From the NCBI GenBank assembly GCA_050329975.1, contig JBHJOG010000207.1, forward strand, positions 7,211 through 71,210: a stretch of 64,000 nt of DNA, in the 5' to 3' direction. A program made the position numbers and the translations under genes. The notes under the pieces are model-generated. The model saw only the letters and a program-made list of their open reading frames with translations, had not been told where the DNA came from and did no database searches. Origin of the DNA: Alphaproteobacteria bacterium. Its GTDB lineage: Bacteria; Pseudomonadota; Alphaproteobacteria; CALKHQ01. Shown here in pieces: positions 4,940 through 64,000 of the stretch. The stretch's first letter is position 1, and every line of letters starts with the position of its first letter.

Positions 4940-5087
4940 GCGCGGCGCGTCCTCCCGACTGTCGAATCCCATCTTCAACGCGGCACAGATGTGCCCTGCC
5001 GATGCCGCCAGCGCAACGGATCCTTAACCACGCCGCGGCGATAAGCGAGGAATCGAGTGCGGAAATCCGCGACAGACTGGACGCCTC

Positions 5088-6857: not shown

Positions 6858-7600
6858 GCACGACCGTCGTCGTCACCATGGCCGGCGAGGGCCGCCGCTT
6901 CCGCGACGCGGGCTACACAGTTCCGAAGTTTGCCGTCGCGGTGCACGGGCGCACGTTGCTCGACTGGTCGCTGACGAGCCTGCAGCGTTTCGCCGCCATG
7001 GGCACGCGGGCAATCTTCGTCGCACGCGCCGAGGAAGATCCGGTGGCGGCCATCGCGCGCGCCTGCGCCGCTGTCGGTTTCGCCAACTGGTCGGTTGTGA
7101 TGCTGGACAGGCCGACCGACGGCCAGGCGACGACCGTGCTCGCAGCCGAACCGGCCCTTGCCGATCCTGCCGACCGGCTGCTGGTGTGGAACGTCGACAC
7201 GCTGGTCTGGCCGGACGCCCTGGACCCTGCCGACTTTGCCGGCGACGGCTGGCTGCCATGTTTCCCGGGGCTCGGTGACGCCTGGAGCTTCGCCCGCGCC
7301 GATTCGTCGGGGTTGGTCGCGGAGGTGCGCGAGAAGCGGCGGATCTCCGGCGACGCCACCATCGGGCTCTACGGGTTCGCCAGCTGGCAGGCGTTTCGCG
7401 ACGCCTATGCCGACACCTACGCCGCCAGCGTGCCGCGCGAGGCGGGCGAGTGCTACGTGGCTCCGATCTACAACGCGATGATCGCCGCGGGCAAGGACGT
7501 GCGCCTGAGCCGGCTGCCCGCACACGCTGTGGTGCCGCTGGGGACGCCGGCCGACGTCGCGGCCTTCGCCGCCGCTGAGCCGGTCGTGGCCGCTGCATGA
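6854..7600 (+). CDS. MobA-like / sugar-phosphate nucleotidyltransferase family protein
   Basis: VVVTMAGEGRRFRDAGYTVPKFAVAVHGRTLLDWSL is an NTP-transferase N-terminal glycine-rich motif. The ATGA overlap with the upstream gene stop suggests translational coupling. Confidence 0.65.
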   Translation: MSTTVVVTMAGEGRRFRDAGYTVPKFAVAVHGRTLLDWSLTSLQRFAAMGTRAIFVARAEEDPVAAIARACAAVGFANWSVVMLDRPTDGQATTVLAAEPALADPADRLLVWNVDTLVWPDALDPADFAGDGWLPCFPGLGDAWSFARADSSGLVAEVREKRRISGDATIGLYGFASWQAFRDAYADTYAASVPREAGECYVAPIYNAMIAAGKDVRLSRLPAHAVVPLGTPADVAAFAAAEPVVAAA

Positions 7601-8793: not shown

Positions 8794-8840
8794 GGAGCCG
8801 ATCGGCGGCCGGTCGGCGCGGACACTCCTCGAATTGCGGC

Positions 8841-8860
8841 GCGGCGGCAGGCGCCGCCGC
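8841..8860. terminator. GC hairpin (GCGGCGGC-AGGC-GCCGCCGC) between convergent genes; possible bidirectional terminator
   Basis: This is a perfect 8-bp inverted repeat read directly from the sequence, extendable with mismatches to 8834..8866. There is no clear U-tract. Confidence 0.35.
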
Positions 8861-8885
8861 ACGCAATCGGCGTGAATCCTGCCGG

Positions 8886-9323
8886 CTATTGGAACACGGC
8901 CCGGGAGACGCGATAATTGTCGGCTGGATCCATGGCGCTGGAGGAGATGTCCATTGTGTCCGTATAGAGCGTTATGGTCGTGATCCTGGGGTTCTCAGTA
9001 TAGAGTATGAGGGAGGTCTCGTCGGCGCGCGCAGACCATTGGACGGGCGCCGCGGTCGTGGGATACGGACCCTCCCAGGTGCTTGCTTCGATCTTTCGGA
9101 AGGTGCCGACCAACTGCTCGCTCGGACCCCTCACCAGATCGAAGCTTATGAGGTGAAGCCCGTCCATCTGCGTCGCGGCGACTGGTGCCGCAGCCGGCGC
9201 CGCAGCCGGCGCCGCAGCCTGCTGCGGTGGCTGATCGTTACGGTCTCCGTCGGACCGGCAGCCGGTCACGGCCAGCATCACGACAAGAATCAGGCCGGAG
9301 AACCTTGCGACAGAAGCGGTCAT
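8886..9323 (-). CDS. Lipoprotein of unknown function
   Basis: MTASVARFSGLILVVMLAVTGC has an LAVTGC lipobox. An AAGGAG Shine-Dalgarno lies 7 nt upstream. Local GC is clearly lower than in the surroundings. The 39-aa upstream extension in the track was rejected. Confidence 0.55.
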   Translation of the reverse strand: MTASVARFSGLILVVMLAVTGCRSDGDRNDQPPQQAAAPAAAPAAAPVAATQMDGLHLISFDLVRGPSEQLVGTFRKIEASTWEGPYPTTAAPVQWSARADETSLILYTENPRITTITLYTDTMDISSSAMDPADNYRVSRAVFQ

Positions 9324-9532
9324 GGGGGCGTCTCCTTCGGGATGTGCGGGGATAGGGTGAGGACGTTCGGCGACAGAAGCAACAGCGTGCAACGCAGTTG
9401 CCTCTCGGACCAGACTATGTGAGAGCTTTCCCCGGCCCAACCGAATTGACGGACTTGGACCGACATAACTCCTTTGCCGCAGGCGCGTCGCTGTTCCGAT
9501 AGCATGGCGCTGGCAACGAGTAGGAGGCTGCC

Positions 9533-10327
9533 ATGCAACTCACCGCCGACCAGCTGGAGACCTTCGACCGCGACGGCTGGCTTCTGCTCGAGGATATGTT
9601 CTCGGCGCCCGAGGTCGCGCTGCTGAAGCGCGAGGCCGCCCGGGTCTATGCCCTCGACCGCCCGGAGGTATTCCGGGAGAAGGACGGCAAGACCGCCCGG
9701 ACCGCCTTCGCCGCCCATACCTACAATGAGGCGTTCCGCCGTCTGGGCCGCCATCCGCGGCTGGTCGAGCCGGTGAAGCAACTCCTCGGCGGCGACGTCT
9801 ACATCCACCAGTACAAGCTGAACGCCAAGGCCGCTTTCGGCGGCGACGTCTGGCAATGGCACCAGGACTACGGCACCTGGGCCCGGGACGACGACATGCC
9901 CGAGGCGCGGGCCATGAACATAGCGCTGTTCCTGGATCCGGTGACCGAGTTCAACGGCCCGCTGATGTTCATCCCGGGTTCCCACAAGCAGGGCGTGATC
10001 GAGGCCGGCCACGACGTCGCCACCACCTCGTACCCGCTGTGGACGCTCGACCAGGACACCATCCGCCGGCTGGTCGCCGAGGGCGGCATCGTCGCGCCAA
10101 AGGGGGCCCCGGGGACGGTACTGATGTTCCATTCGACCCTGGTCCATGGCAGCTCCAGCAACATGTCCCCCTTCGACCGGTCGATCGTCTATCTGAGCCT
10201 GTGCCGGGTCGACAATCACATCCGGCGATTCTCGCGCCCGGAATGGATCGCCCACCGCGATTTCACGCCCATCGAATGCCTGCCGGACGATTGCCTGGCC
10301 CCGCTGCTGGGCGAGAAGGCAGCCTGA
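9533..10327 (+). CDS. Fe(II)/2-oxoglutarate-dependent dioxygenase of the phytanoyl-CoA dioxygenase (PhyH) family, ectoine-hydroxylase-like
   Basis: WQWHQDYGTWARDDDMP resembles the EctD signature F-x-W-H-S-D-F-E-T-W-H-x-E-D-G-M/L-P. A downstream ...HGSSSN... has the second His. An AGGAGG Shine-Dalgarno precedes the ATG. Confidence 0.75.
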   Translation: MQLTADQLETFDRDGWLLLEDMFSAPEVALLKREAARVYALDRPEVFREKDGKTARTAFAAHTYNEAFRRLGRHPRLVEPVKQLLGGDVYIHQYKLNAKAAFGGDVWQWHQDYGTWARDDDMPEARAMNIALFLDPVTEFNGPLMFIPGSHKQGVIEAGHDVATTSYPLWTLDQDTIRRLVAEGGIVAPKGAPGTVLMFHSTLVHGSSSNMSPFDRSIVYLSLCRVDNHIRRFSRPEWIAHRDFTPIECLPDDCLAPLLGEKAA

Positions 10328-10345
10328 TCGCAAAGGACAAGCCAC

Positions 10346-11698
10346 ATGAATTTGCACGCCCTCATGGCCGCCCGTGCCGACCGTCCCGTCCGGGTCGGGC
10401 TCATCGGTGCCGGCAAGTTCGGCGCCATGTTCCTGGCCCAGGTACCGTTCATGCCGGGCCTGCATGTGGCCGCGATCGCCGACCTGCGGCCGGACGGCGT
10501 GCGCGCGCGGCTGAAGGCGGTCGGCTGGGACGAGGCGCGCGGCCAGGCTGCGGACCTGGACGCCGCGCTGGCCACCGGCGGGACCTGGATCGGCGACGAC
10601 GCTATGGCGATGATCGCGTCCGAACCGATCGAGATCGTGATCGACGCCACCGGCGACCCAGCTTCCGGCATCGCTCACGCGCTCGCCTGCTTCGAACACG
10701 GCAAGCACCTGATCATGGTCAATGTGGAGGCGGACGCGCTGGCCGGGCCGCTGCTGGCGGAGCGGGCACGGCAGGCGGGGGTGCTCTACTCGCTCGCCTA
10801 TGGCGACCAGCCGGCGCTGATCTGCGAGCAGGTGGACTGGGCGCGGGCCTGCGGCATGCGCGTGGTGGCGGCTGGCAAGGGCACCCGCTACCGGCCGGAA
10901 TTCCACGGCTCCACCCCCGACACGGTCTGGGGCTATTACGGGCTGACGCCGGAGCAGGCCCAGGCGGCCGGCATGAACCCGAAGATGTTCAACTCCTTTC
11001 TCGACGGCACCAAGTCGGGCATCGAGATGGCGGCGGTGGCCAACGCCACCGGGCTGACCCCCAGCCCCGGCGGGCTGAAGTTCCAGCCCTGCGGTGTGCA
11101 TGACATCGCGCGGATGCTGCGGCCAGCGGAGGTGGGCGGCATCCTGCACCATGCCGGCCAGGTCGAGGTGATCTCCAGCGACGAATTCGACGGCCGCGCG
11201 GTGGTGGGCGACCTGCGCTGGGGCGTCTATGTGGTGATCGAGGGCCCAAGCGACTACGCCGCCCGCTGCTTCGGGGAGTACGGCATGATCACCGATCCGA
11301 CGGGCCGCTACACGGCGCTCTGGCGCCCCTACCACATGATCGGGCTCGAGCTCGGCGTCTCTGTCGCCAGCATCGCCGCCCGCGGCGAGGCGACGGGCGC
11401 GGCGCGGCAGTGGCTGGGCGATGTGGTGGCGACCGCCAAGCGCGACCTCGCACCGGGCGAAGAGCTGGATGGGGAGGGCGGCTACACCGTCTGGGGCCGG
11501 CTCTATCCGGCGGAGCGGTCGCTGGCCATCGGCGGCCTGCCGATCGGGCTGGCCGACAGGGCGCGGCTGCTGCATCCGGTCCAGGCCGGCCAGCCGGTCC
11601 GCTGGTCCGATGTGGCGCTGGACGCGGAGCAGCCGGCGGTCGCCCTGCGCCGCGAGATGGAGCGCGCCTACGCGCCGCAGGCGGACGCGGCGGAGTAA
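10346..11698 (+). CDS. NAD(P)-binding oxidoreductase, predicted homoserine-dehydrogenase-like (COG4091 type) with C-terminal SAF domain
   Basis: VRVGLIGAGKFGAMFL is a Rossmann GxGxxG. The C-terminal LAIGGLPIGLADRARLLHPVQAGQPVRWSDVAL is SAF-like. This is a family-level call only. Confidence 0.6.
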   Translation: MNLHALMAARADRPVRVGLIGAGKFGAMFLAQVPFMPGLHVAAIADLRPDGVRARLKAVGWDEARGQAADLDAALATGGTWIGDDAMAMIASEPIEIVIDATGDPASGIAHALACFEHGKHLIMVNVEADALAGPLLAERARQAGVLYSLAYGDQPALICEQVDWARACGMRVVAAGKGTRYRPEFHGSTPDTVWGYYGLTPEQAQAAGMNPKMFNSFLDGTKSGIEMAAVANATGLTPSPGGLKFQPCGVHDIARMLRPAEVGGILHHAGQVEVISSDEFDGRAVVGDLRWGVYVVIEGPSDYAARCFGEYGMITDPTGRYTALWRPYHMIGLELGVSVASIAARGEATGAARQWLGDVVATAKRDLAPGEELDGEGGYTVWGRLYPAERSLAIGGLPIGLADRARLLHPVQAGQPVRWSDVALDAEQPAVALRREMERAYAPQADAAE

Positions 11699-11770
11699 AG
11701 CCCCTTGACCTCAGCTTAGCTTGAGCTTGTAGCCTGCGGCCCTTCGAACCACGCAGGAGGACCGCCGACG

Positions 11771-12121
11771 ATGGGCAAGCCGCAACACGAGGCCGGGGCA
11801 GAACGCATGCCGGTCACTGTCATCAACGTATTCACGCCGAGGCCGGGAAGACTCGAGGACCTCGTCGCCGTGCAGCAGGCTGCGCTGCCGGGATTCCGCG
11901 GCCGGGTCCCGGGGTTGCTAGGCAGCCGCTTCTACCGGGCGCTGGACGGGCGGAACGCGGTGCTGGTCAGCGTGTTCGAGACGCCGGACGACTTTCAGCA
12001 GTTCCGCGGGTCCGATCTGTTCGCCGCTCATCGCGACCGGATCTCGCCCCTGCTGGAGGGAACGAACCCGGGGCTCTACGAACTGGTGTACGAGGCAGGG
12101 GAGGGTGCGGCTGCCGGCTGA
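11771..12121 (+). CDS. Antibiotic-biosynthesis-monooxygenase (ABM) domain protein
   Basis: PVTVINVFTPRPGRLEDLVAVQQAALPGFRGRVPGLLGSRFYRALDGRNAVLVSVFETPDDFQQF fits the ABM ferredoxin-like pattern. A GGAGGA Shine-Dalgarno lies 9 nt upstream. Confidence 0.6.
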   Translation: MGKPQHEAGAERMPVTVINVFTPRPGRLEDLVAVQQAALPGFRGRVPGLLGSRFYRALDGRNAVLVSVFETPDDFQQFRGSDLFAAHRDRISPLLEGTNPGLYELVYEAGEGAAAG

Positions 12122-14263: not shown

Positions 14264-15679
14264 TCAGTTCCCGTCGGCAGGTGGCCAGTGTCCCTCCGCC
14301 TTGGCTGCGACAGCCGCCGCAAGCGCCGTCCGCGCCCTGGCGAACACCTCTGCCCATTCCCCCGGCACCTGCTGGCGGAACAGCCGCATCGAGGGGTACC
14401 AGGGGGTCCGATCGCTGTCGACCGGGTAGATCCAGTAAGGATGGTAGGGCAGCAGGTTCCAGACCGGGCGGCCGAGAGAACCGCACAGGTGGGCAACCGA
14501 ACTGTCGGTCATGATCACCAGGTCGAGCATCTCGATCGCGGCGGCGGTCTCGGCGAAGTCGTCCACACGGGTCCCGATATCGAGAATCACAGCATCGGCG
14601 CCCGAGGCGACGAGGTCGCCCTCGCGCGGACCCTTCTGCAGGCTGTAGAGCTGGACGCCGGGCACGGTCCCGAGCGGCAGGAACTGCTCGAGGGAGACCG
14701 CCCGCTTCGCGTTGCCCTTGAAGGTGACGCTGCCGGACCAGACGATGCCGACCTTGAAGCGGTCGCCGCCCGGGGCGATCAGAGGGGCGACGCGCGCGCG
14801 CGCTGCTTCCGGCACGGTCAGCGCCACGGGGGCGCCCGGCGCCATCACGTCGGCGCCGAGGATCCGCGGCAGCGTCATCAGCGAGCAATGGGTGTCGAAG
14901 GCCTCAAACCGCTCCTCGGATGCGACCAGCCGGGAGACGCCGGGACACCCCTGGAGCAGCCGGCGCAGCGGGGGCTTGCATTCCAGGACGACGACCGCCT
15001 CCTGCTCCACCAGCTGCGGCAGGAAGCGCAGCGCCATCAGCGTGTCGCCGTAGCCCTGTTCGGGATGCAGGTAGATGGTCTTGCCCGCCAACGGCTCGCC
15101 GTTCCATTCCGGCTGGGGATAGCTGCGCGGCTTGACCTCGCCGGTCTGCCGACGGGCCTCGTAGTCGCGCCAGCCATCGCGGCTGCGTCCGAGGTGAAGC
15201 AGGATCAGGGACCGGTCCCAGCGATAGGTCGGGTTGTCGGGCTTGCGGGCGACGAGGGTGTCCAGTTGGGTCAGCGCCTCCTCGAACCGCGTCGCCTCGC
15301 GCAGGGCAACCGCGTAGTTGTGTCGGCCGCGGTCGTCGTCGGGATCGCGGGCGACCACCGCCTGCTGCAGCGCGAGCGCCTCGTCGAGACGGTCCATGTC
15401 TTTCAGCACGTTGCCGAGGTTGCCCATCGCCGCCACGTCGTCCGGCGCCAGCTCCAGCGCCCGGCGATAGCAGATCTCGGCGGCCGCAAACGCCTTCCGC
15501 TCGCGCAGCGCCACGCCGAGGTTGCACCAGATGCCGCTGTCCTGCGGCCGCACGGCGAGGTAGCGGCGGTAGAGCGGGATCGCCTGCTCGGTCCTACCGC
15601 CCTGGTGCAGCCGGATGGCGTCGGCGCGGACGGCAGCCAGGGGATCGGCCCCACCGGCAGCCGCCCCATTGTCCTTCAT
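14264..15679 (-). CDS. TPR-repeat protein fused to glycosyltransferase family 9 (heptosyltransferase-like) domain; FlmG-like candidate flagellin glycosyltransferase
   Basis: The N-terminal ~180 aa hold four or more TPR repeats (e.g. AIPLYRRYLAVRPQDSGIWCNLGVAL; AEICYRRALELAPDDVAAMGNLGNVL). The C-terminal region has GT9 motifs (KVGIVWSGSVTFKGNAKRAVS; DSSVAHLCGSLGRPVWNLL). Confidence 0.75.
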   Translation of the reverse strand: MKDNGAAAGGADPLAAVRADAIRLHQGGRTEQAIPLYRRYLAVRPQDSGIWCNLGVALRERKAFAAAEICYRRALELAPDDVAAMGNLGNVLKDMDRLDEALALQQAVVARDPDDDRGRHNYAVALREATRFEEALTQLDTLVARKPDNPTYRWDRSLILLHLGRSRDGWRDYEARRQTGEVKPRSYPQPEWNGEPLAGKTIYLHPEQGYGDTLMALRFLPQLVEQEAVVVLECKPPLRRLLQGCPGVSRLVASEERFEAFDTHCSLMTLPRILGADVMAPGAPVALTVPEAARARVAPLIAPGGDRFKVGIVWSGSVTFKGNAKRAVSLEQFLPLGTVPGVQLYSLQKGPREGDLVASGADAVILDIGTRVDDFAETAAAIEMLDLVIMTDSSVAHLCGSLGRPVWNLLPYHPYWIYPVDSDRTPWYPSMRLFRQQVPGEWAEVFARARTALAAAVAAKAEGHWPPADGN

Positions 15680-15704
15680 GGCTGTCGGGCCCTCGGGCGA
15701 AGCT

Positions 15705-16730
15705 TCAAGCGGCCGCGCGGAGGTAGTCGCGGGTCAGCAGCTCGGCGATCTGCACCGCGTTGGTCGCCGCACCCTTGCGCAGGTTGTCGGCGACGATCCA
15801 CATCGAGAGGCCGTAGGGCACGGTCGGATCCTTGCGCAGGCGGCTGACAAAGACCTTGTCTTCGCCCGCAACCTCCGCCGGCGTGACGTAGCCTTCGTCG
15901 ACCCGATGGTCGATGACGCCGGCGCCGTCGGCCTCGCGGATGGCCTCGCGCGCCGTGTCCTCGTCGATCGGGCGCGCGAATTCCACAGTTACCGCCTCGG
16001 CATGACCGACGAACACCGGAACGCGCACGCAGGTCGCCTGCACCTTGATGTCGGGGTCGAGGATCTTGCGCGTCTCGACCGCCATCTTCCACTCTTCCCT
16101 GGTCGAGCCGTCTTCCATGAAACTGTCGATGTGCGGGATCACATTGAAGGCGATCTGCTTGGTGAACAATTCCGGCTTGATCGGATCGTTGACGTAGACG
16201 CCGCGGGTCTGGGTGAACAGCTCGTCCATACCCGCCTTGCCGGCGCCGGAAACCGACTGGTAGGTGGCGACGACGATCCGGGTGATCTTGGCGAGGTCGT
16301 GCAACGGCTTCAGCGCCACCAGCATCTGGATGGTCGAGCAGTTGGGGTTGGCGATGATGCCGCGTTTGGCGTAGCCGCCGATCGCTTGCGGGTTCACTTC
16401 CGGCACGATCAGCGGCACGTCGGGGTCCATACGGAAATGGGACGTATTGTCGATCACCACTGCCCCGGCGCGCGCCGCACGCGGCGCATGCTCGGCCGAA
16501 ATCTTCGAGCCCGGGGAGAACAGGGCGATGTCGATGCCCTTGAAGTCGAAGGTCGCCAGGTCGCGTGCGGTCAGGATCTGCTCGTCCCCGAAGGAGAGCT
16601 CCGTCCCGACCGACCGGCTCGAGGCCAGCGCAACCACCTCGTCGGCGGGAAACTCGCGGTCGGCGAGCGTGTTCAGCATCTCGCGGCCCACATTGCCCGT
16701 GGCTCCGACGACTGCGACCCGATATCCCAT
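15705..16730 (-). CDS. asd: Aspartate-semialdehyde dehydrogenase
   Basis: MGYRVAVVGATGNVGREML... with the active-site region ...IIANPNCSTIQMLVALKPL. The 42-aa upstream extension in the track was rejected. Confidence 0.9.
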   Translation of the reverse strand: MGYRVAVVGATGNVGREMLNTLADREFPADEVVALASSRSVGTELSFGDEQILTARDLATFDFKGIDIALFSPGSKISAEHAPRAARAGAVVIDNTSHFRMDPDVPLIVPEVNPQAIGGYAKRGIIANPNCSTIQMLVALKPLHDLAKITRIVVATYQSVSGAGKAGMDELFTQTRGVYVNDPIKPELFTKQIAFNVIPHIDSFMEDGSTREEWKMAVETRKILDPDIKVQATCVRVPVFVGHAEAVTVEFARPIDEDTAREAIREADGAGVIDHRVDEGYVTPAEVAGEDKVFVSRLRKDPTVPYGLSMWIVADNLRKGAATNAVQIAELLTRDYLRAAA

Positions 16731-39188: not shown

Positions 39189-39426
39189 GTTCGACTCCCG
39201 CTTGAATGCATTGTGCGGTCGGCCGTGGGGATCGCCGCCGCGGTCGGTTGCATCTGATTAACATTAACTTTCTCACCCATTCGTTAAGCAAGGGTAAACG
39301 CTCCGATTGTCGGTGGGGGGTTCATTCACAATTAATGGAACGGCACCGGCATGTGATTTACGCCGGCTTAATCCCCGCCGCCTAACATCCCTGGACCCGC
39401 TCGCATCGCAGAAGGCGACGCCGCAT

Positions 39427-46714: not shown

Positions 46715-48097
<1,383 letters not shown>

Positions 48098-48143
48098 TGT
48101 GAACCCTCTTGTCCTAGGCAGCGTGTCAGGCAGTACGGAGCGG

Positions 48144-48515
48144 TCACGACCGGTCCGACTTGATGATTTCGGTCATGGTGACCCCGAGCCGATCGTCGAC
48201 CACAACGACCTCGCCGCGGGCGACGAGGCGGTTGTTGACGAAGATGTCGATCGGCTCTCCCACCTTCCGGTCCAGCTCGACGATCGCGCCGGGGCCGAGG
48301 CGAAGCAGGTTGCTGACCTGCAGCTGCGACTTGCCGAGGACCGCCGAAACCTGGACCGGGATATCGTAGACCGTCTCCAGCTCGCGCGACGTGCGAACCT
48401 GGTTCGGGTCCTCGTCGTCGGAAGCGATCCGCCGGGCCTCCGCGGCCATAGCCGCCGCCATGTCGGTGTCGTCCTCGTCCAGCGTGTTGAGAACCAGATC
48501 TCCGTCTTCGTTCAT
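48144..48515 (-). CDS. fliN: Flagellar motor switch protein FliN
   Basis: The SpoA/FliN C-terminal domain is [66 protein letters not shown]. Confidence 0.9.
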
Positions 48516-56928: not shown

Positions 56929-57307
56929 AGTTCAGCACCTCTTGCTCATACCTGATCAGGTTGCGGCACTTCTTGAGTGCGCCGTAGCTGTCGCCGGCGA
57001 TCATCTGCTGGCCGATCTCCAGCAGGAGCGTCGTCGAGCTCGGAACCGCCTGGGCGAACTGTTGCAGGAAGCTGTTAAAGTTCTCTTGATGATCCCGCAC
57101 ATGTTCGGGAAACAGGTGCATCATCTGGACCGTGAAGTAGATCCGCTTCGCTGGCGTGTCGGCGCGCTCTTCGGTGATGATGTCCTTCTCGCGCAGGATG
57201 TTGGCGCGGTTCTGCAGGACGAACTGGGCGCGGTCGCCGCCGTTTACGATGACGGCGCCGTTGATGATGATCTTTTCGCCCGCCTTCAGTGAGATCTTCA
57301 GAGCCAT
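56912..57307 (-). CDS. flbT: Flagellin translation regulator FlbT
   Basis: MALKISLKAGEKIIINGAVIVNGGDRAQFVLQNRANILREKDII is a FlbT signature. The 51-aa Arg/Pro-rich track extension was rejected. It overlaps the flaF start by 17 nt. Confidence 0.85.
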   Translation of the reverse strand: MALKISLKAGEKIIINGAVIVNGGDRAQFVLQNRANILREKDIITEERADTPAKRIYFTVQMMHLFPEHVRDHQENFNSFLQQFAQAVPSSTTLLLEIGQQMIAGDSYGALKKCRNLIRYEQEVLNYAGSA

Positions 57308-57371: not shown

Positions 57372-58199
57372 CTAACCGAACAGCTGCAGCACGTTGCGCT
57401 CATTCTGGGCGGAGAGCGAAAGCGCGTTGGTGGCCAGCTGCTGCCGGGTCTGCAGGGCAAGCAGGTTGGCGCTTTCCTCGTTCATGTCGGCGAGCGTCAG
57501 CTTGCCCGCACCCTGCTCGAGGGTGTTGACCAGGCTCTGGGTGAAGCTCAGGCGCGTCTTCAGCACCGTGTTGTTCGAGCCCAGCGCCGCGGCATTTGTC
57601 CGCAACTCGATCAGGGCCGCATTCACCGAACTCAGCGCCGCGTCGACGTCGCCCTCGCTGCCCCAGTTGTTCGTCGCCGTGCCGATCGAGAGCCCGCCCG
57701 CGCTCGACGTCGACCGCAGGTGGGCGATCGTCAGCTTGGATGTGCCGTCCTCGTTGAAATCTACGGTCAGCGTGTCGGAGCCGCCGTCGATCAGGTTGAC
57801 GCCGTTGTAGCTGGCGTCCCGGGCGAGGTCGTTGAGCTGGGTCAGCAGCTCGGTGAACTGGTGGGCCAGCCCGGAGCGCTCCGCCGCGCTGCCCGAAGAC
57901 TTCGCCTTGGTCGCCAGGCCCTTGGCCTGCTCGACCAGGTCGGTGATCGACTCGATGCCGTCGATGGCGGCCTGGATCGTGCTGATCGCCTGGTCGACGT
58001 TGTCCTTCAGTCGGCCCAGATCGCCGGCCCGGTCGCTGAGCGCCCGCGACTGGAAATAGGCGGTCGGGTCGTCCAGTGCGGAACTGACCTTGAGCCCGGT
58101 CGCCAGACGGTTCTGCGTCGTGTTGACCAGGTCCGAGGTGCGCTGAAGCGTCAGCAGGTTGTCACGTACGATCTGGGAAAGAGCAATCTTGGCTGCCAT
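57372..58199 (-). CDS. Flagellin (short, 275 aa)
   Basis: The conserved flagellin N-terminus is MAAKIALSQIVRDNLLTLQRTSDLVNTTQNRLATGLKVSSALDDPTAYF. The C-terminus is ...LLALQTRQQLATNALSLSAQNERNVLQLF. A GGAGGATGAA Shine-Dalgarno is present. The track start at 58280 was rejected. Confidence 0.9.
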   Translation of the reverse strand: MAAKIALSQIVRDNLLTLQRTSDLVNTTQNRLATGLKVSSALDDPTAYFQSRALSDRAGDLGRLKDNVDQAISTIQAAIDGIESITDLVEQAKGLATKAKSSGSAAERSGLAHQFTELLTQLNDLARDASYNGVNLIDGGSDTLTVDFNEDGTSKLTIAHLRSTSSAGGLSIGTATNNWGSEGDVDAALSSVNAALIELRTNAAALGSNNTVLKTRLSFTQSLVNTLEQGAGKLTLADMNEESANLLALQTRQQLATNALSLSAQNERNVLQLFG

Positions 58200-58320: not shown

Positions 58321-58336
58321 AGGTTAACGGCAACCG
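58321..58336 (-). promoter_or_regulatory. Sigma-54 (-24/-12) promoter TGGCAC-GCCGG-TTGC for the downstream flagellin gene
   Basis: The match to TGGCAC-N5-TTGC is exact on the minus strand. The predicted TSS is ~110 nt upstream of the flagellin ATG. flbD is in the window. Confidence 0.7.
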
Positions 58337-58581
58337 GCGTGCCAACACGTGCACCGGCCCCGGAGGAGCGGCGAGTGCATCTGTTGAATCCGAGATGTAT
58401 CAGTGGTTTAGCCGAACTCTCCGGTGGAGCGGAGGCTGGCCGCGACAGGGTAAAGGCCGCACTGGGCGCCGTGGCCGGGGGAAAACTCTGCCGGCCGATG
58501 GCAATTCGTGCCGGGACATATCGGTCGCGTCGGCGACCCGAGGGCTCATGCGGCCCGGCCTGCGGCGAGGTCGTCGCGGGC

Positions 58582-58638: not shown

Positions 58639-59466
58639 TTAGCCGAGGAGCCCCAGCACCGACCGCTCGGACTGTGCCGACAACGCAAGGGCGTTGGTGG
58701 ACAGCTGCTGGCGGGTCTGCAGCGCGAGCAAGTTCGCGCTTTCCTCGTTCAGGTCGGCGAGCGTCAGCTTGCCGGCGCCGCTCTGCAGCGTGTTGACCAT
58801 CTTGGAGGTGAACTCCAAGCGGGTCTGCAGGACGGCGTTGTTGGAACCGAGCGTGGACGCGTTGGTCCGCAGTTCGGTCAGCGCAGCGTTGACTGAGCTC
58901 AGGGCCGCGTCGACGTCGCCGTCGGACGCGAAGTTGCCCGTAGCGCCGGCGATCGAGAGTCCGCCGGCACTGGCGTTCGACCTCATGTGCGCGATCGTCA
59001 GCCGCGAGGTTCCGTCCTCGTTGAAGTCGACCGTCAACTCGTCGTCGCCGCCGTCGATCAGGTTGACGCCGTTGTAGCTCGAGTCCCTCGCCAGGTCGTT
59101 GATCTGGGTCAGGATGTCATCGAACTGCGAGGCCAGGCTCGACCGCTCGGTGGCGTCACCGGACGACTTCGCCTTGGTCGCCAGACCCTTCGCCTGCTCG
59201 ACCAGACTCGTGATGCCCTCGATACCGTCGATGGCTGCACCGATCGTGCTGACCGCCTGGTCGATATTCGACTTCAGCGTGTTGAGGTCGCCGGCGCGGT
59301 CGGTCAGGCTCTTTGCCTGGAAGAACGCAGAGGCGTCGTCCAGAGCGGACGAAACCTTCAGGCCGGTGGCAAGGCGGTTCTGGGTAGTGTTGATCAGGCT
59401 CGCCGTGCCGGTCAGGGTCAGCAGGTTGTTGCGTACCGGTGCTGAGAGAGCAATGCTAGCAGCCAT
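58639..59466 (-). CDS. Flagellin (short, 275 aa), paralogue of the 57372..58199 product
   Basis: MAASIALSAPVRNNLLTLTGTASLINTTQNRLATGLKVSSALDDASAFF... The termini are highly similar to the first copy, and the central region diverges. Confidence 0.9.
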   Translation of the reverse strand: MAASIALSAPVRNNLLTLTGTASLINTTQNRLATGLKVSSALDDASAFFQAKSLTDRAGDLNTLKSNIDQAVSTIGAAIDGIEGITSLVEQAKGLATKAKSSGDATERSSLASQFDDILTQINDLARDSSYNGVNLIDGGDDELTVDFNEDGTSRLTIAHMRSNASAGGLSIAGATGNFASDGDVDAALSSVNAALTELRTNASTLGSNNAVLQTRLEFTSKMVNTLQSGAGKLTLADLNEESANLLALQTRQQLSTNALALSAQSERSVLGLLG

Positions 59467-59626
59467 GTCGTATCCCTTTCTAGGATATTGGCAACGAACG
59501 CATTCTGCATTCGCGTAAGCCAGGTTCTACTTGAACGACGACATTGCCAGACTGGGCCTACGGCGTCGGAACTACCTGTTCCATATGACGTTGGCCTACC
59601 TGGCAAAACGCCGCGTCGAATTGAGA

Positions 59627-59641
59627 GCAACCGCCGTGCCA
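59627..59641 (-). promoter_or_regulatory. Sigma-54 (-24/-12) promoter TGGCAC-GGCGG-TTGC for the second flagellin gene
   Basis: Exact consensus on the minus strand. The predicted leader is ~150 nt. Confidence 0.7.
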
Positions 59642-59907
59642 GACAGTTGGCTCGGATTGAAGTCTTTGATTCCTGTGATATCTGATAGTTAATCGAAGGT
59701 AAAATGGTCAGAGTGCTCGGCAAATGTTGCCGTTGCCGGGGGAAATTTTTGCCGCAGCGGGGAAGAATCTGCCGGATGCATTTTCTTAGGGTAAATCAAT
59801 CCTTGACTATACTGATGTATTTGCGGTTTCTCCGATCTCTCACCAGGTTCGTTGCCGGTCTGACCCTGATGGTGCCTGGAAGGGCCTTGAGTTGCTGACA
59901 GCGGTTG

Positions 59908-59923
59908 CTTGCGTGGATTAGGC
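59908..59923 (+). promoter_or_regulatory. CtrA-box-like motif TTAG-N7-TTAAC ~30 nt upstream of the neuB/pseI-like gene
   Basis: There is a single mismatch to TTAA-N7-TTAAC, and TTAACCAA partially overlaps the TTAACCAT half-site consensus. Confidence 0.35.
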
Positions 59924-59954
59924 TCCCGTTAACCAACATCGGTGTCGATAGGGC

Positions 59955-60818
59955 ATGGTCCAGTTCATCGCCGAGATATCCAGCAACCATGCCCGCGATC
60001 CGGGCCGCTGCGCCGCACTGATCGCGGCGGCCGCAGCGGCCGGCTGCGACGCGGTCAAGTTCCAGCTCTTCCGGGTCGACGCGTTGTTCGCGCCGGAAAT
60101 CCTCGCCCGCAGCGCCGAGCATCGCCGGCGGAAGGACTGGGAGCTGCCGGTCGAGCTGATCCCGCAACTCGCGGCGCAGGCGCGGGATCGAGGAATGGCC
60201 TTCGGCTGCACGCCCTTCGACCTCGATGCCGTCGAGGCGTTGCGCGCGCATGTGGATTTTCTGAAGGTCGCTTCCTATGAGCTGATCTGGCGTGACCTCA
60301 TCGCGGCCTGCGCGCGCACCGGGCTGCCGACCATCCTGTCCACCGGCATGGCCACCCTCGAAGAGGCGGTCGCCGCGGTCGCCGGCGCGCGCGAAGACGG
60401 CGCGGGCGACCTCACGGTCCTGCACTGCGTTTCGAGCTACCCGACGCCGCCCGCCCAATGCAACCTGGCGGCCATGGCCACCATCGCGCGCGCCTGCGGC
60501 GTACCGGTGGGCTGGTCCGACCACAGCCGATCGCCCGAGGTGGTGCTGCGCGCAGTCCATCGCTGGAATGCGGCAATGGTCGAGTTCCACCTCGACCTCG
60601 ATGGATCCGGCGCCGAGTACGCCCCGGGCCATTGCTGGCTGCCCGAGGAGATCGCGCCGGTGATTGCCGCCTGTCGCCAGGGGGCGGTGCTCGACGGCGA
60701 CGGCAAGAAGGCGCCGCAGCCCTGCGAGCTGGCCGATCGGGACTGGCGGGCGGACCCCGTCGACGGCCTCCGGCCGCTGCTGGCAACCCGCGCCCGGTGG
60801 CTGGAGGAGGCATCGTGA
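59955..60818 (+). CDS. neuB: Nonulosonic acid (sialic/pseudaminic/legionaminic acid) synthase family protein (NeuB/PseI-like), short form without obvious SAF domain
   Basis: FIAEISSNHARDPGRCAALIAAAAAAGCDAVKFQLF...FLKVASYELIW...TILSTGMATLEE...LHCVSSYPTPP fits NeuB family motifs (IAEIGxNHxG; KFQ; hCvS.YP). Confidence 0.8.
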   Translation: MVQFIAEISSNHARDPGRCAALIAAAAAAGCDAVKFQLFRVDALFAPEILARSAEHRRRKDWELPVELIPQLAAQARDRGMAFGCTPFDLDAVEALRAHVDFLKVASYELIWRDLIAACARTGLPTILSTGMATLEEAVAAVAGAREDGAGDLTVLHCVSSYPTPPAQCNLAAMATIARACGVPVGWSDHSRSPEVVLRAVHRWNAAMVEFHLDLDGSGAEYAPGHCWLPEEIAPVIAACRQGAVLDGDGKKAPQPCELADRDWRADPVDGLRPLLATRARWLEEAS

Positions 60819-62629
60819 GGCCGATCGCGCCTGTGCGCCGGGTCGTAGCCGTCGTCCAGGCTCGCATGGGGTCGAGCCGGCTGCCTGGCAAGGCGCTGAT
60901 GCCGCTCGCCGGCCGGCCGGTGATCTGGCACGTCCTGGAGCGGCTCGCGCGCGCGCAGCGGCTCGACCAGGTCGTGCTGGCGACGACCACGGCCGCTGCC
61001 GATGATGCGCTTGCCGACTATGTCACCGGCCTCGGCGTCGTGGTCGTCCGTGGGTCGGAGCGCAATGTGCTCGCCCGTTTCATTCAGGCCGCCGAGCTGA
61101 CCCGCGCCGACGTCGTGGTCCGCATCACCGGCGATTGCCCGCTGGTCGACCCGTGGCTCGTCGACTACCTGGTCGATGCGCTGGCAGCGGATGCCGGCTA
61201 TGTCCAGGTCAACCCCGACGGCGTGCTGATCGACGAAGGCATCGATCCATGCACCACGTGGGCCCTGCACCGGCTCGCCGCCCAGGCCGGCGACGATCCG
61301 GTGGCCCAGGAGCACGTCACCAGCTACTTCAAGCTGCACCCTGGCTTCGTCCCCGTCGCCCGCTGTCCGGCGCCGGAGGACCGCCGGCTGGAAGGCGCCA
61401 GGATTTCCGTCGATACGCCGGCCGACCTGCGCTTTCTCGAGAGAATCTACGAGCGAATGCAGGCTGCCCCCGGCGACCTCGACGTGGTCGCCCTGGTCGG
61501 GCTGCTCCGGGCCGAGCCCGAGCTGATGACGCTGAATCGGCATGTGGTGCGCAAGCAGACGCGGGTAGACGACCGCTGCGTCCTTATCCGCTGTGACGGC
61601 TATGCCGCGATCGGGCTCGGTCACGTCGTGCGCTGCCTGGCGATCGCCGAGGCGCTCCGCGATCGGCATGGCCTGCGGGTGGTTCTTGCCGTGGACCAGG
61701 GCCGTCCTGCACAGGACCTCGTCGCCCGTCAGGGCTTCAAGCTGGCCGAGGCACGCTGCGACGGCGAATGCGAAGCCGCCTGGATCGACCGGACGCTGGC
61801 CGCCACCGGCGCCGAAGCGCTGGTGCTCGACATTCGCACTGACCTTCCTGCCGATACGGTCCGCCGCTGGCGGCAACGTGGGACGGTGACAGCGGTCGTC
61901 GACGACGGCAGCCCGCGTCGGCTTGCTGCGGACCTCGCCTTCTTTCCGCCGGTGCCGCAGCTGAAGGACCTGGACTGGTCGGGCTTCTCCGGGGCGCTGT
62001 TTGTCGGCTGGGACTATCTTGCGCTGCGCCGAGAGTTCGCACGTACACGTCGTGCGCTCCCCGCCGGCGACGGTCGACGGCTGCGGCTGCTGGTCACCAT
62101 GGGCGGGTCGGACCCGGCCGGTGCCACCGCGGTGGCGATCGAGGCGCTGGCCGGCCTTGCCGCAGATGTTGCGGTGACCGTCGTGGTCGGCGCCGCCAGC
62201 CTCGAAAGGGACCGGATTGCCGCGCTGGTCGTCACGCATCTGCCCGGCGGCCGCCTGCTCTATGGGAGCGACGACATGCCGGCGCTGATGGCGGCGGCCG
62301 ACCTCGCCGTCATCGCCTTCGGGATGACCGCCTACGAGGCGGCCGCGGTCGGCACCCCGACCCTTGCCCTCTGTCTGTCGGCAGATCACGAGGCCAGCGC
62401 GCGCGCGCTCGCGGACGAGGGAGCCCTCGTCGTCGCCGGCAGGATCGGGGTGGTGACGGCAGCCGGGCTTGCCCCGCAGATCGCCGCTCTGATCGCAAAT
62501 CGCGACCGGCTTGCGGCGATGGGCGAGGCCGGAGGCCGGCTGATCGATGGTCGGGGCGCCGATCGCATCGCCGACCGGATCATGGCCCGGCTCGCGCAGC
62601 GCGAGCGTGGCCCTCTGGTCGCCGCGTGA
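60815..62629 (+). CDS. Fusion protein: N-terminal CMP-nonulosonate synthetase-like cytidylyltransferase (SpsF/PseF/FlmC-like) + C-terminal PseG/FlmD-like UDP-sugar hydrolase (GT28-C-like)
   Basis: GTG start with a GGAGGAGG Shine-Dalgarno, overlapping the neuB stop (GTGA). The N-terminal motif is VVAVVQARMGSSRLPGKALMPLAGRPVIWHVLER (CTP_transf_3 pattern). The middle region has CVLIRCDGYAAIGLGHVVRCLAIAEAL (PseG GxGHxxRC motif). The C-terminal region has LVTMGGSDPAG...AADLAVIAFGMTAYEAAAVGTPTLAL (MurG-like). The track start at 60458 was rejected. Confidence 0.7.
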   Translation: MRPIAPVRRVVAVVQARMGSSRLPGKALMPLAGRPVIWHVLERLARAQRLDQVVLATTTAAADDALADYVTGLGVVVVRGSERNVLARFIQAAELTRADVVVRITGDCPLVDPWLVDYLVDALAADAGYVQVNPDGVLIDEGIDPCTTWALHRLAAQAGDDPVAQEHVTSYFKLHPGFVPVARCPAPEDRRLEGARISVDTPADLRFLERIYERMQAAPGDLDVVALVGLLRAEPELMTLNRHVVRKQTRVDDRCVLIRCDGYAAIGLGHVVRCLAIAEALRDRHGLRVVLAVDQGRPAQDLVARQGFKLAEARCDGECEAAWIDRTLAATGAEALVLDIRTDLPADTVRRWRQRGTVTAVVDDGSPRRLAADLAFFPPVPQLKDLDWSGFSGALFVGWDYLALRREFARTRRALPAGDGRRLRLLVTMGGSDPAGATAVAIEALAGLAADVAVTVVVGAASLERDRIAALVVTHLPGGRLLYGSDDMPALMAAADLAVIAFGMTAYEAAAVGTPTLALCLSADHEASARALADEGALVVAGRIGVVTAAGLAPQIAALIANRDRLAAMGEAGGRLIDGRGADRIADRIMARLAQRERGPLVAA

Positions 62630-63555
62630 TGCCGGCGAGCGCGCTCGCCGCGGTGCGGCACGACGGCCCGTTGCTGGCCGAGCGCGACGGCTTTGCGGTT
62701 ATCGACTGCACGGGCTGCGGCTATGCCCATGCCATGCCGCTCCCCAGCGTGGACGCGCTGATCGATACCTACCGCCATGACTATTATGCCGCGGAGAAGC
62801 CGCTTTACCTGGCGCGGACCGAGGAGGACCGCGCCTGGTGGCTCGACGTCTACGATGAACGCGTGGCCACAATGGAGGCCTGGCGGGGCCAGGCCCCCGG
62901 AGCGATTCTCGACATCGGCAGCGGCCCCGGCCTGTTTCTCGACGCGGCCGCGGCGCGCGGCTGGCGCACGCGCGGGGTCGAGCCGTCCCGCCAGGCCGCC
63001 ACCCATGCGCGCGGGCTCGGCCACGAGATCCGCGAAGGCTTCTTCGGGGCGGCGATGGCCGCGTCGCTGGACCCGGTCGACGCCGTACACATGGCGCTGG
63101 TGCTGGAGCATGTGCCGGAGCCGGCCAGCCTGCTTGCTGCGGCGCGCGGGCTGCTGCGGCCGAGCGGTGTCCTCTGCGTCGTGGTGCCGAACGACTTCAG
63201 TCCGTTGCAGCGGGTGGTGGAGGGGCAGGGAATGGCACCTTGGTGGGTGGCCCCGCCGCACCACCTCAACTACTTCACCCCCGTGAGCCTGACCGCCCTG
63301 CTGGAACGCACCGGGTTTACCGTCGTCGAGCGCACCGCCACCTTCCCGATGGAGCTGTTCCTGCTGATGGGCGAGGCCTATGTCGGCGACGACGCCCTCG
63401 GGCGCGCCTGCCACGGCAAGCGCAAGGCCTTCGAGACCGCGATGCGGCGGGCCGGGCAGTCAGACCGGCTGGCGCGGCTCTATCGCAGCCTGGCCGACCA
63501 GGGCCTCGGCCGCGAGATCGTGCTGTACGCGCGCGCCGCCGGCAGCGCGCGATGA
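62626..63555 (+). CDS. Class I SAM-dependent methyltransferase
   Basis: Motif I is ILDIGSGPGLF. Motif post-I/II follows (GWRTRGVEPS..., VDAVHMALVLEHVPEP). ATGA overlap with the upstream stop. Confidence 0.75.
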   Translation: MMPASALAAVRHDGPLLAERDGFAVIDCTGCGYAHAMPLPSVDALIDTYRHDYYAAEKPLYLARTEEDRAWWLDVYDERVATMEAWRGQAPGAILDIGSGPGLFLDAAAARGWRTRGVEPSRQAATHARGLGHEIREGFFGAAMAASLDPVDAVHMALVLEHVPEPASLLAAARGLLRPSGVLCVVVPNDFSPLQRVVEGQGMAPWWVAPPHHLNYFTPVSLTALLERTGFTVVERTATFPMELFLLMGEAYVGDDALGRACHGKRKAFETAMRRAGQSDRLARLYRSLADQGLGREIVLYARAAGSAR

Positions 63556-64000
63556 AGGGCACCCGTCCGATCTTCGTCGTCGGCAGCGGCCGGTCCGGCA
63601 CTGCCGCCCTGGCCAGGGTCCTGGGCAGCGTGCCGGGCGTGGAAATGCACCACGAGTATCTGTGCACCCATATCCAGCCGGTCTCCGCCCGTTACGCCAT
63701 GGGCCGCGCCGATGTTGCCGAGGTGCGCACGGTTCTCGATGCCTGCCACGGCGCGGCAATCAGGCTCAGCAGCGCCGGGATCTGGGGCGACAGCTCCAAC
63801 AAGCTGTCATGGATCATGCCTATCCTGGCCGAACTCTATCCCGACGCCCGCTACGCCCATGTCGTACGCGACGGGCGCAAGGTGGCGAGCTCCTTTTTTC
63901 ACAAGCTCGCCGACGAGTGCTACGACGACGCCAGCGTCGCTGCGCTCGCCGACTGGCTCGACGGCAGGGGCGTGATGCCGCCGCCGGAAAAGCGCTACTG
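63552..64000 (+). CDS. Sulfotransferase-family protein (partial; continues beyond window end)
   Basis: MKGTRPIFVVGSGRSGTAALARVL resembles the 5'-PSB PAPS-binding loop of bacterial sulfotransferases. The ATG overlaps the methyltransferase stop (GATGA). The frame has high GC3 and stays open to the window end. It is not in the supplied track. Confidence 0.5.
   Translation, partial: MKGTRPIFVVGSGRSGTAALARVLGSVPGVEMHHEYLCTHIQPVSARYAMGRADVAEVRTVLDACHGAAIRLSSAGIWGDSSNKLSWIMPILAELYPDARYAHVVRDGRKVASSFFHKLADECYDDASVAALADWLDGRGVMPPPEKRY

Follow-up and report, generated by a model that had tools for sequence, protein, structure and literature searches.

What do four translationally coupled genes that diverge from a pair of flagellin genes make, and for what? 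The question is raised by the end of a 64,000-nucleotide stretch of contig JBHJOG010000207.1 from an Alphaproteobacteria bacterium, the whole of which is called the window here. The answer put forward, at a probability of roughly 0.7, is that the four genes, g1 to g4, form the promoter-proximal end of an Sfm-type island for flagellin glycosylation, which makes a nonulosonate of the pseudaminic acid (Pse) type. This reading is based on domain identities, the fold of the g2 product, sequence motifs, synteny, and the occurrence of such genes together with flagellar genes and with bona fide PseB and PseC. What is new is a transketolase-based side-chain module, accompanied by two methyltransferases and an island-specific sulfotransferase and without PseH, which is common in uncultured soil Alphaproteobacteria.

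The Head of a Presumed Operon

The four genes and the neighbouring flagellin genes are the following.

59955-60818, + strand: g1, 287 aa from an ATG start; nonulosonate synthase made up of a NeuB domain only, a "short NeuB" of the SfmA type.
60815-62629, + strand: g2, 604 aa from a GTG start; fusion of a cytidylyltransferase with a PseG-like domain.
62626-63555, + strand: g3 (MT1), 309 aa from a GTG start or 308 aa from an in-frame ATG at 62629; class I S-adenosylmethionine (SAM) methyltransferase.
63552 to beyond 64000, + strand: g4, sulfotransferase.
58639-59466, - strand: flagellin gene, 275 aa, divergent from g1; product a presumed glycan acceptor.
57372-58199, - strand: second flagellin gene, 275 aa from an ATG at 58199; product likewise a presumed glycan acceptor.

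A sequence-only reading of the window had described four translationally coupled + strand open reading frames divergent from tandem flagellins, and its coordinates and overlaps were reproduced. Read from the sequence, the g1/g2 junction is a GTGA overlap with GGAGGAGG just before the g2 start, the g2/g3 junction is GTGATG, with an overlap of 4 nt for the GTG start and 1 nt for the ATG start, and the g3/g4 junction is an ATGA overlap. The G+C content at third codon positions is 0.83-0.89 in all four frames, matching the other genes of the window, and the two tandem flagellin genes come after those for FlbT, FlaF, a FliK-like protein, FlgD, FlgE and FliF. Hidden Markov model (HMM) searches proposed with the sequence-only reading were run, and NeuB, CTP_transf_3, PseG TIGR03590, Methyltransf_23 and Sulfotransfer_3 all matched in the expected genes. 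Together with the coupled frames, these matches bear out its claim of a methyltransferase and a sulfotransferase within one operon with Pse-type genes.

The Island in Related Genomes

Two syntenic relatives, L001 and L002, serve as proxies for the island beyond 64000; their g1-g3 products are 73-80% identical to those of the window, and the range for g1-g4 is 65-80%. The flagellin encoded at 58639-59466 is 89% identical to the L001 flagellin, which itself has Flagellin_N and Flagellin_C Pfam matches. In both relatives, one strand carries FliF ... FlgE, FlgD, FliK, FlaF, FlbT and two flagellin genes. The opposite strand carries the short NeuB, the fusion, MT1, the sulfotransferase, a second methyltransferase (MT2, 378 aa), the N and C parts of a transketolase (TKN and TKC), a FabG-like short-chain dehydrogenase/reductase (SDR), an ATP-grasp protein of the LAL_C2 type and a 483-aa tetratricopeptide repeat (TPR) protein, and then FlaG. 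The ten co-directional, tightly spaced genes are presumably an operon.

The same gene set is found in 14 further loci from Rhizomicrobium and other alphaproteobacterial metagenome-assembled genomes (MAGs), in the order ATP-grasp-SDR-TKC-TKN-MT2-sulfotransferase-(MT1) facing NeuB-fusion-TPR, and these loci adjoin FlgI, FlgJ, FliP, FliQ, FliR or flagellin. The side-chain module is kept with the sulfotransferase in every transketolase-type (TK-type) locus with enough flanking sequence. In loci with longer flanks the island extends to genes for a GH57-like protein of 650 aa, for PseB and for a PseC-type aminotransferase, the GH57-like gene lying between ATP-grasp and PseB in Rhizomicrobium-type islands. 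PseB scores 508 bits in L087 and 514 bits in L088 against TIGR03589 (cut-off 407.75), and PseC of L088 scores 435 bits against TIGR03588 (cut-off 423.5); the DegT-type neighbour in L087 is truncated at the locus end. PseB is also present at the locus edge in L008 and L014. In the clade to which the window belongs, the island lacks all three of the GH57-like, PseB and PseC genes.

No GNAT/PseH-like acetyltransferase was found in the four islands with gene and Pfam annotation (L001, L002, L087, L088). The closest solved relatives of the ATP-grasp protein are L-amino-acid ligases (3VOT, BacD), a kinship that would fit the formation of an amide on the amino group otherwise acetylated by PseH.

The TPR protein of the island (L001 18679-20127, 483 aa) joins TPR repeats to a C-terminal domain of about 300 aa. 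This domain has no Pfam or PDB sequence match, a PDB profile search with the whole protein gives TPR proteins only, and a single-sequence AlphaFold2 (AF2) model has a pLDDT below 50 over it. A 489-aa protein encoded in the window at 14267-15733 (- strand) likewise starts with TPR repeats and ends in a domain of about 300 aa that has no Pfam or PDB sequence match; it is 28% identical to the island TPR protein and could be a second FlmG-like transferase.

A related island lies beside three flagellin genes in a cultured alphaproteobacterial isolate, Kordiimonas marina (L089; GCA_023006325.1, JAINDF010000006.1 199663-220529). It encodes TPR604, a short NeuB (66%), the fusion, MT1 (46%), another methyltransferase, TKN and TKC (50% and 60%), an SDR (62%) and an iron-containing alcohol dehydrogenase, and has neither a sulfotransferase nor an ATP-grasp gene.

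Two loci from Rhizomicrobium or alphaproteobacterial MAGs, L027 (9989-11587) and L031, encode a 532-aa fusion of CTP_transf_3 with an aldo-keto reductase right after a short NeuB, with no PseG domain. They also carry an IlvB-like thiamine diphosphate (ThDP) enzyme, an SDR, ATP-grasp, methyltransferases and a TPR protein, which is the composition of Shewanella sfmABCDE. The same MAG (DASSGF01) has a separate CTP::PseG fusion next to flagellin genes (L016).

A Single-Chain Cytidylyltransferase and PseG-Like Protein

The g2 product divides as follows.

60815-61543, + strand (aa 1-243): N-terminal domain, CTP_transf_3 cytidylyltransferase of the SpsF/FlmC type; predicted CMP-nonulosonate synthetase.
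61544-61567, + strand (aa 244-251): interdomain linker, the one place inside the AF2 model where pLDDT drops below 50.
61568-62629, + strand (aa 252-604): C-terminal domain, PseG/FlmD-like with a GT-B fold; predicted UDP-sugar hydrolase.

Residues 11-213 match Pfam CTP_transf_3 (PF02348) at 4.8e-28, and the domain matches a Leptospira cytidylyltransferase (PDB 6OEW) both by sequence (4.6e-23) and by Foldseek (TM 0.89), with KdsB matched as well. The sequence-only reading had called the protein PseF-PseG (FlmC-FlmD-like). The second of these labels stands, whereas PseF membership does not: against TIGR03584 the domain scores 20.6 bits for a cut-off of 205.7, with 49 residues matched, which places it outside the PseF family. 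It may nevertheless work like PseF.

The C-terminal half matches PseG TIGR03590 over residues 255-530 at 1.1e-38, covering profile positions 2-278 of 280, and is 32-36% identical end to end to the annotated FlmD of Tritonibacter and to an Azospirillum protein named PseG by the NCBI annotation pipeline (PGAP). Foldseek aligns it with MurG (TM 0.81) and with Campylobacter jejuni PseG (3HBN/3HBM, TM 0.77). A GxGHxxR motif, with G267, G269, H270 and R273, is invariant in 15 fusion proteins and in annotated FlmD and PseG. We take the G-x-G-H part of this motif to carry the catalytic His of PseG (His17 in C. jejuni PseG). His270 is encoded at 61622-61624, 16 residues into the domain.

That g2 is a single 604-aa fusion was confirmed, a frameshift artefact being excluded by an unbroken alignment to 14 homologues and by a confident two-domain fold. 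The protein is collinear with these homologues over its full length at 42-76% identity, with many invariant residues in both halves, and its AF2 model has two confident domains (mean pLDDT 89, about 90 over the C-terminal domain).

The fusion itself is not novel. It had been singled out at first as an unusual architecture, a view that gave way once a database search for single-chain forms brought up over 100 homologues of full length (about 590-600 aa). Their named sources are Bacillota, Deltaproteobacteria, Dehalococcoidia, Planctomycetota, Geoalkalibacter and Plasticicumulans, and most are labelled SpsF or "cytidylyltransferase domain-containing". In a survey of GTDB contigs, taking one genome per species, 43 of 80 loci had the fused gene, including archaea (Methanoregula, Methanomicrobiales) and cultured Bacillaceae. 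PseC lies beside the fusion in 24 of the 27 fused loci that do not belong to the alphaproteobacterial island group, and most also have PseB upstream and a canonical PseI downstream, the usual order being pseB-pseC-fusion-pseI. Members of the Bacillus cereus group encode a PseG-type hydrolase and an SpsF/FlmC-type synthetase in separate genes that lie side by side. These pse-operon contexts indicate that the fusion family is a single-chain form of the PseG-type hydrolase and the SpsF/FlmC-type CMP-sugar synthetase of pse operons.

The Short NeuB as Probable Core Synthase

The g1 product matches Pfam NeuB (PF03102) along the entire profile (9.6e-54, positions 1-241 of 241), and in an alignment with canonical PseI the catalytic Glu7 and the metal-binding His190 and His212 are invariant. 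A family search with g1 gave 6579 matches at E <= 1e-20. The best 120 of these are all 267-308 aa long and consist of a NeuB domain alone; among them the clade of the window itself is 75-100% identical to g1, and the rest, spread across Alpha-, Gamma- and Deltaproteobacteria, are 61-67% identical. PDB 6NCS is a 290-aa member of this family, among solved structures SpsE (1VLI) gives the best sequence match to g1, and identity is 35% to a PGAP-named PseI and 38% to the NeuB of L010, which contains a SAF domain.

Every island examined has exactly one NeuB-family gene. The short NeuB directly follows PseB-PseC in L075 (Nitrospinota), with a CTP transferase next, and follows PseB in L068 (Actinomycetota); in L010, a canonical SAF-containing NeuB sits inside an otherwise similar island. 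On these three grounds g1 is taken as the core nonulosonate synthase. A role in making a side-chain acid instead, prompted by a 236-Da moiety (C9H16O7) on Shewanella flagellin, was considered and is less likely given the single NeuB gene per island, the canonical NeuB of L010 and the order pseB-pseC-short NeuB-CTP transferase of L075.

The short NeuB also occurs in another setting. On marine TARA and Logan contigs (L085/L086, 10001-12860), it shares 65% identity with g1, shows translational coupling to a GH57-like protein of 665 aa and comes after a BtrH_N/DUF4872 protein; the surrounding 10 kb are free of pse, cytidylyltransferase and flagellar genes.

Comparison With Characterized Systems

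The sfmABCDE genes of Shewanella oneidensis encode a 290-aa NeuB-domain protein, an IlvB-like ThDP enzyme, a 255-aa SDR resembling 3-oxoacyl-ACP reductase, a 395-aa SAM methyltransferase and a 412-aa ATP-grasp protein (PMC3765264). All five affect flagellin modification, sfmA-D are needed for normal motility, and without sfmE the mass shift of flagellin is smaller (PMC3765264). The glycan consists of a 274-Da mono-acetyl Pse-like nonulosonate and of the 236-Da moiety, which carries zero to two O-methyl groups (PMC3765264). SO_3261, treated as pseI, is the sole NeuB homologue in Shewanella, and its deletion abolishes glycosylation (bioRxiv 10.1101/2023.12.03.569772). The present island resembles this cluster in its short NeuB of about 290 aa, its ThDP enzyme, FabG-like SDR, methyltransferase of about 390 aa and ATP-grasp protein of about 410 aa, and in its flagellar surroundings. 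The short NeuB and a methyltransferase are present in the window, and the rest of the sfmABCDE-type set in L001 and L002. A mono-acetyl Pse-like sugar with an O-methylated moiety also fits an island that has methyltransferases and lacks PseH. It is the ThDP/SDR/ATP-grasp side-chain machinery that makes the island one of the Sfm type.

The two systems differ in several respects. The ThDP enzyme is IlvB-like in Shewanella and a split transketolase here, with the IlvB-like form found in the relatives L027 and L031. This island adds a sulfotransferase and MT1, has the cytidylyltransferase::PseG fusion inside the operon, and has a TPR (FlmG-like) protein as its likely transferase, in contrast to Maf in Shewanella.

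The Flm system of Caulobacter crescentus (FlmA/B/H, FlmD, NeuB, FlmC, FlmG; PMC7591256) is likewise alphaproteobacterial, with flagellins of 273-275 aa, FlaF/FlbT and a TPR transferase. Its flmC gene encodes a cytidylyltransferase unrelated to PseF and lies immediately upstream of, and is co-encoded with, flmD (PseG) (PMC7591256), in agreement with the earlier description of g2 as Caulobacter FlmC and FlmD in one chain. In Caulobacter, however, FlmC and FlmD are separate, NeuB is full length, FlmH gives a second acetyl group, side-chain, methyl and sulfate genes are lacking, and the flm genes are scattered over several loci.

With the pseBCHGIF pathway of C. jejuni and Helicobacter pylori the island shares its predicted core chemistry, namely a NeuB-type condensation with phosphoenolpyruvate (PEP) followed by CMP activation, as well as the PseG fold and His motif and, in related islands, PseB and PseC equivalogs. 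It departs from that pathway in having an SpsF/FlmC-type enzyme for PseF, a PseI without SAF, no PseH, a fused PseG and a transferase that is not of the Maf type. The Bacillus subtilis SpsE/SpsF/SpsG proteins (PMC7439481) offer the best solved match of g1 (SpsE) and counterparts of the N-terminal (SpsF) and C-terminal (SpsG) domains of g2, but these are three individual proteins, of which SpsE includes a SAF domain, and they serve legionaminic acid on spores (the spore crust) rather than flagella. No literature pairing a flagellin glycosylation island with a transketolase was found; the sole match for pseudaminic acid, transketolase and flagellum was irrelevant.

The Methyltransferase and the Sulfotransferase

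The g3 product matches Pfam Methyltransf_23 (2.8e-24), and its best solved relatives are the nucleotide-sugar 3-C-methyltransferases KijD1, TylC3 and TcaB9. An orthologue of 42-52% identity occurs in seven TK-type islands (L004, L005, L007, L015, L017, L018, L087) and is missing from seven others (L003, L006, L008, L009, L013, L014, L088); MT1 is an optional island member.

The g4 fragment matches Sulfotransfer_3 (PF13469) at 1.3e-12 and 48.9 bits, above the gathering cut-off of 27, and the full-length sulfotransferase of L001 scores 47.8 bits. Binding of the sulfate donor 3′-phosphoadenosine 5′-phosphosulfate (PAPS) involves a 5′-phosphosulfate-binding (5′-PSB) loop and a 3′-phosphate-binding (3′-PB) Arg...Ser pair. 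In this family, the SGRSG(T) 5′-PSB loop (S12-G13-R14-S15-G16) and the 3′-PB pair R106/S114, 8 residues apart, are invariant in 10 members. Orthologues of 49-58% identity occur in the 14 further TK-type island loci, and L001 and L002 carry the sulfotransferase as well. A search gave 1420 homologues at E <= 1e-5, in a family of about 273-295 aa whose named members come from Rhizomicrobium or Alphaproteobacteria MAGs, and every sampled context is such an island. L002 (12769-14772) encodes the sulfotransferase and MT2 as a single chain of 667 aa, which argues that both act on the same substrate. Since the Kordiimonas marina island does without it, the sulfotransferase is an accessory of the soil clade. 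No sulfotransferase linked to flagellin pseudaminic acid was met in the searched literature, in line with the earlier remark that a methyltransferase and a sulfotransferase with a Pse core had not been seen described in this arrangement.

These two enzymes might act on the flagellin polypeptide itself, by lysine methylation and tyrosine sulfation, or on an unrelated metabolite, and this is improbable. Such a role could be argued from Pfam Sulfotransfer_3, which also takes in protein tyrosine sulfotransferases, from a match that spans part of that profile, with a weak P-loop match to 2ZQ5 as the only PDB similarity, and from the lysine methylation that accompanies glycosylation on Shewanella flagellin (PMC3765264). 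The genetic setting speaks otherwise, as the sulfotransferase always lies between sugar-type methyltransferases in a biosynthetic operon and, in L002, forms one chain with MT2. Moreover, the closest solved relatives of MT1 modify nucleotide sugars, MT2 of L087 weakly matches the C-terminal domain of sugar C-methyltransferases, and in Shewanella the methylation attributed to the sfm-linked glycan consists of O-methyl groups on the 236-Da moiety.

Proposed Pathway and Its Alternatives

In the proposed pathway, PseB and PseC would convert UDP-GlcNAc to UDP-4-amino-4,6-dideoxy-AltNAc; their genes lie inside Rhizomicrobium-type islands and were not found in the window. The PseG-like domain of g2 would strip UDP, g1 would condense the hexose with PEP to a nonulosonate of the pseudaminic acid type, and the SpsF/FlmC-type domain of g2 would activate this with CMP. 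An ATP-grasp amide ligase probably acylates the free amino group, because there is no PseH acetyltransferase, with an acid supplied by the transketolase and SDR. MT1, MT2 and the PAPS-dependent sulfotransferase would methylate and sulfate the glycan, and the TPR-type, FlmG-like transferase would place it on Ser/Thr of the two adjacent flagellins. We infer the order of the steps, the replacement of PseH by ATP-grasp, where the methyl and sulfate groups are placed and which protein is the transferase. The full structure is offered more tentatively: the flagellin may carry a sulfated, O-methylated Pse derivative with a core made by a NeuB lacking SAF, one amino group being acylated by ATP-grasp, in place of PseH, with a polyhydroxy acid from the transketolase and SDR.

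Several observations weigh against a Pse-type island, beginning with g1. It had been described as a short NeuB/PseI-like synthase; the NeuB domain is sound, but the scores against NCBIfam PseI (TIGR03586; 148.9 bits, cut-off 340.25) and NCBIfam NeuB (156.5 bits, cut-off 399.65) are below the equivalog level, and the shortness amounts to the loss of the whole C-terminal SAF domain. No SAF/antifreeze-like domain was matched in g1 with Pfam, and a tail of about 25 aa stands where canonical PseI has it. An Arg of this domain is essential in Caulobacter NeuB, where R322A is inactive (PMC7591256), so substrate binding in g1 must differ. In the alignment, R273-P274 (window 60771-60776), invariant in the short tail of the SAF-less family, coincides with the RP motif that canonical PseI has in its SAF domain, and this Arg-Pro pair may be all that is left of the substrate-binding Arg.

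The remaining adverse points concern the other genes and the comparison. Placement of the C-terminal half of g2 in the PseG family by HMM holds for the nearly full-length TIGR03590 match, but not for the score, which is 133.5 bits against a cut-off of 153.55. PseB and PseC were not found in the window by tblastn with the annotated Tritonibacter proteins, reading all large open reading frames gave no DegT-type or Polysacc_synt_2-type protein there, and neither gene was found in the 10 kb flanking the island on each side in L001 or L002. The Pse precursor pathway of the lineage of the window is therefore assumed to be encoded elsewhere; g1 orthologues that do lie beside pseB/pseC (L087, L088, L075, L068) are 57-63% identical to g1. 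In L085 the short NeuB is paired with a GH57-like gene alone and lacks pse neighbours, g4 is represented in the window by the N-terminal 149 of about 281 aa (its orthologues are full length), and, for every carrier, the island product is read here from genes. Shewanella sfmABCDE is the closest characterised system as judged by domain composition and by protein sizes taken from descriptions. An SpsF/SpsG pair, finally, leaves the sugar unfixed, because in B. subtilis these proteins serve a legionaminic acid pathway.

Much of this would also suit an ulosonic acid other than pseudaminic acid, either of the legionaminic type or a non-amino sugar acid derived from the transketolase product, with the PseG-like GT-B domain acting as a true glycosyltransferase or on another nucleotide sugar. 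Besides the sub-threshold scores of g1 and the g2 C-terminal domain, the missing SAF domain, the legionaminic acid made by SpsE/F/G and the lack of pseB/pseC in the window, L001 and L002, such a product could account for the Foldseek ranking of MurG, a true transferase, above PseG, and for the short NeuB genes accompanied by CTP_transf_3::aldo-keto reductase without PseG in L027/L031 or found without pse genes in L085. It is nonetheless unlikely. PseB above cut-off in L087 and L088, and PseC in L088, indicate a Pse rather than a legionaminic acid route, and PseB recurs at the edge of L008 and L014. In most other phyla the fusion family lies between PseC and PseI, and the catalytic-His motif of PseG is invariant. 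In Shewanella, the only NeuB homologue is a short NeuB, and in composition the base sugar corresponds to a mono-acetyl Pse or legionaminic acid.

Far less probable is a self-contained four-gene Pse module, with methylated and/or sulfated Pse as its product and pseB, pseC and pseH immediately downstream; in its favour, gene order and domain calls are those first described. L001 and L002 go on to MT2, the split transketolase, SDR, ATP-grasp, the TPR protein and FlaG, and the 9 kb downstream contain no PseB, PseC or acetyltransferase; the side-chain module is also kept with the sulfotransferase in all TK-type loci with enough flank. What survives of that description is a flagellum-linked Pse-type nonulosonate module, but not a product of Pse core, methyl and sulfate alone, which omits the ThDP/SDR/ATP-grasp side-chain machinery.

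Least probable of all is a nonulosonate destined for capsule or lipopolysaccharide, with the flagellin genes nearby by chance: Pse is also a capsule and O-antigen component, as with the Sinorhizobium rkp-3 genes (PMC7591256), and the transferase here is putative, but the island lies amid flagellar genes in all lineages examined, namely the window with L001/L002, Rhizomicrobium, L087, L088 and Kordiimonas, ends in a TPR protein with a two-part, FlmG-like layout, and has no polysaccharide polymerase, flippase or export gene among the called genes of these loci.

Regulatory Sites and Other Genes of the Window

For the Pse-type flagellin glycosylation island favoured here, the 488-bp spacer between flagellin and g1 holds candidate regulatory sites, and 76% of it is conserved among the window, L001 and L002. 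The predicted sites are as follows.

59918-59933, + strand: CtrA-box-like TTAG-N7-TTAAC, 22 nt upstream of the g1 ATG; candidate regulatory site of the operon.
59688-59703, - strand: second CtrA-box-like site in the flagellin/g1 spacer.
39283-39299, 39320-39335 and 57074-57089: further CtrA-box-like sites from the window-wide scan.
59626-59641, - strand: sigma54-type promoter TGGCAC-N5-TTGC with 0 mismatches, facing the flagellin gene 58639-59466.
58329-58344, - strand: sigma54-type promoter with 1 mismatch, preceding the flagellin gene 57372-58199.

The block GGATTAGGCT..TTAACCAA around the 59918-59933 site is invariant in the window, L001 and L002, and the core TAGTTAAT.GAAGGT of the second site is kept in L001 and L002. 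CtrA-box-like TTAA-N7-TTAAC sequences with at most one mismatch number 6 in the window against 0.19 expected from shuffling; three matches fall at two spots between a ctrA-like response regulator gene and fliI, and two in the flagellin/g1 spacer. CtrA may bind at these candidate sites, as judged from their sequence. The predicted sigma54-type promoters lie 130-175 nt upstream of the two flagellin genes, and an FlbD-like sigma54 activator, recognised by eye from the translation, is encoded at 46715-48172.

Elsewhere in the window, a run of + strand genes at 5028-12121 encodes a 609-aa protein with an APH-like kinase domain, Glyco_trans_1_2, a PhyH dioxygenase, a DRL_cat+SAF oxidoreductase and an ABM monooxygenase, and may modify sugars or small molecules.

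Significance

Nonulosonate glycans on flagellin have been linked to surface charge and to phage and host recognition. They also affect filament assembly and motility, as in Caulobacter (PMC7591256) and Shewanella (PMC3765264). For annotation, the fusion now listed as "spore coat protein SpsF" or "cytidylyltransferase domain-containing protein" would be better named a bifunctional PseG-like/CMP-nonulosonate synthetase (predicted). The NeuB without SAF and the single-chain PseG/cytidylyltransferase are possible reagents for the chemo-enzymatic synthesis of Pse derivatives. The islands also provide natural variants for comparison with the Shewanella 236-Da moiety, with a transketolase or an IlvB-like enzyme and with or without the sulfotransferase, MT1 and ATP-grasp, and Kordiimonas marina is a cultured, naturally sulfotransferase-less comparator that may serve as an experimental model. 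The island is widespread in soil Alphaproteobacteria, in Rhizomicrobium and its relatives. If the full structure proposed above is right, the island would give a bacterial flagellum its first known sulfated nonulosonate, to judge from the literature searched, and the core sugar would come from a NeuB that works without the SAF domain essential in canonical enzymes.

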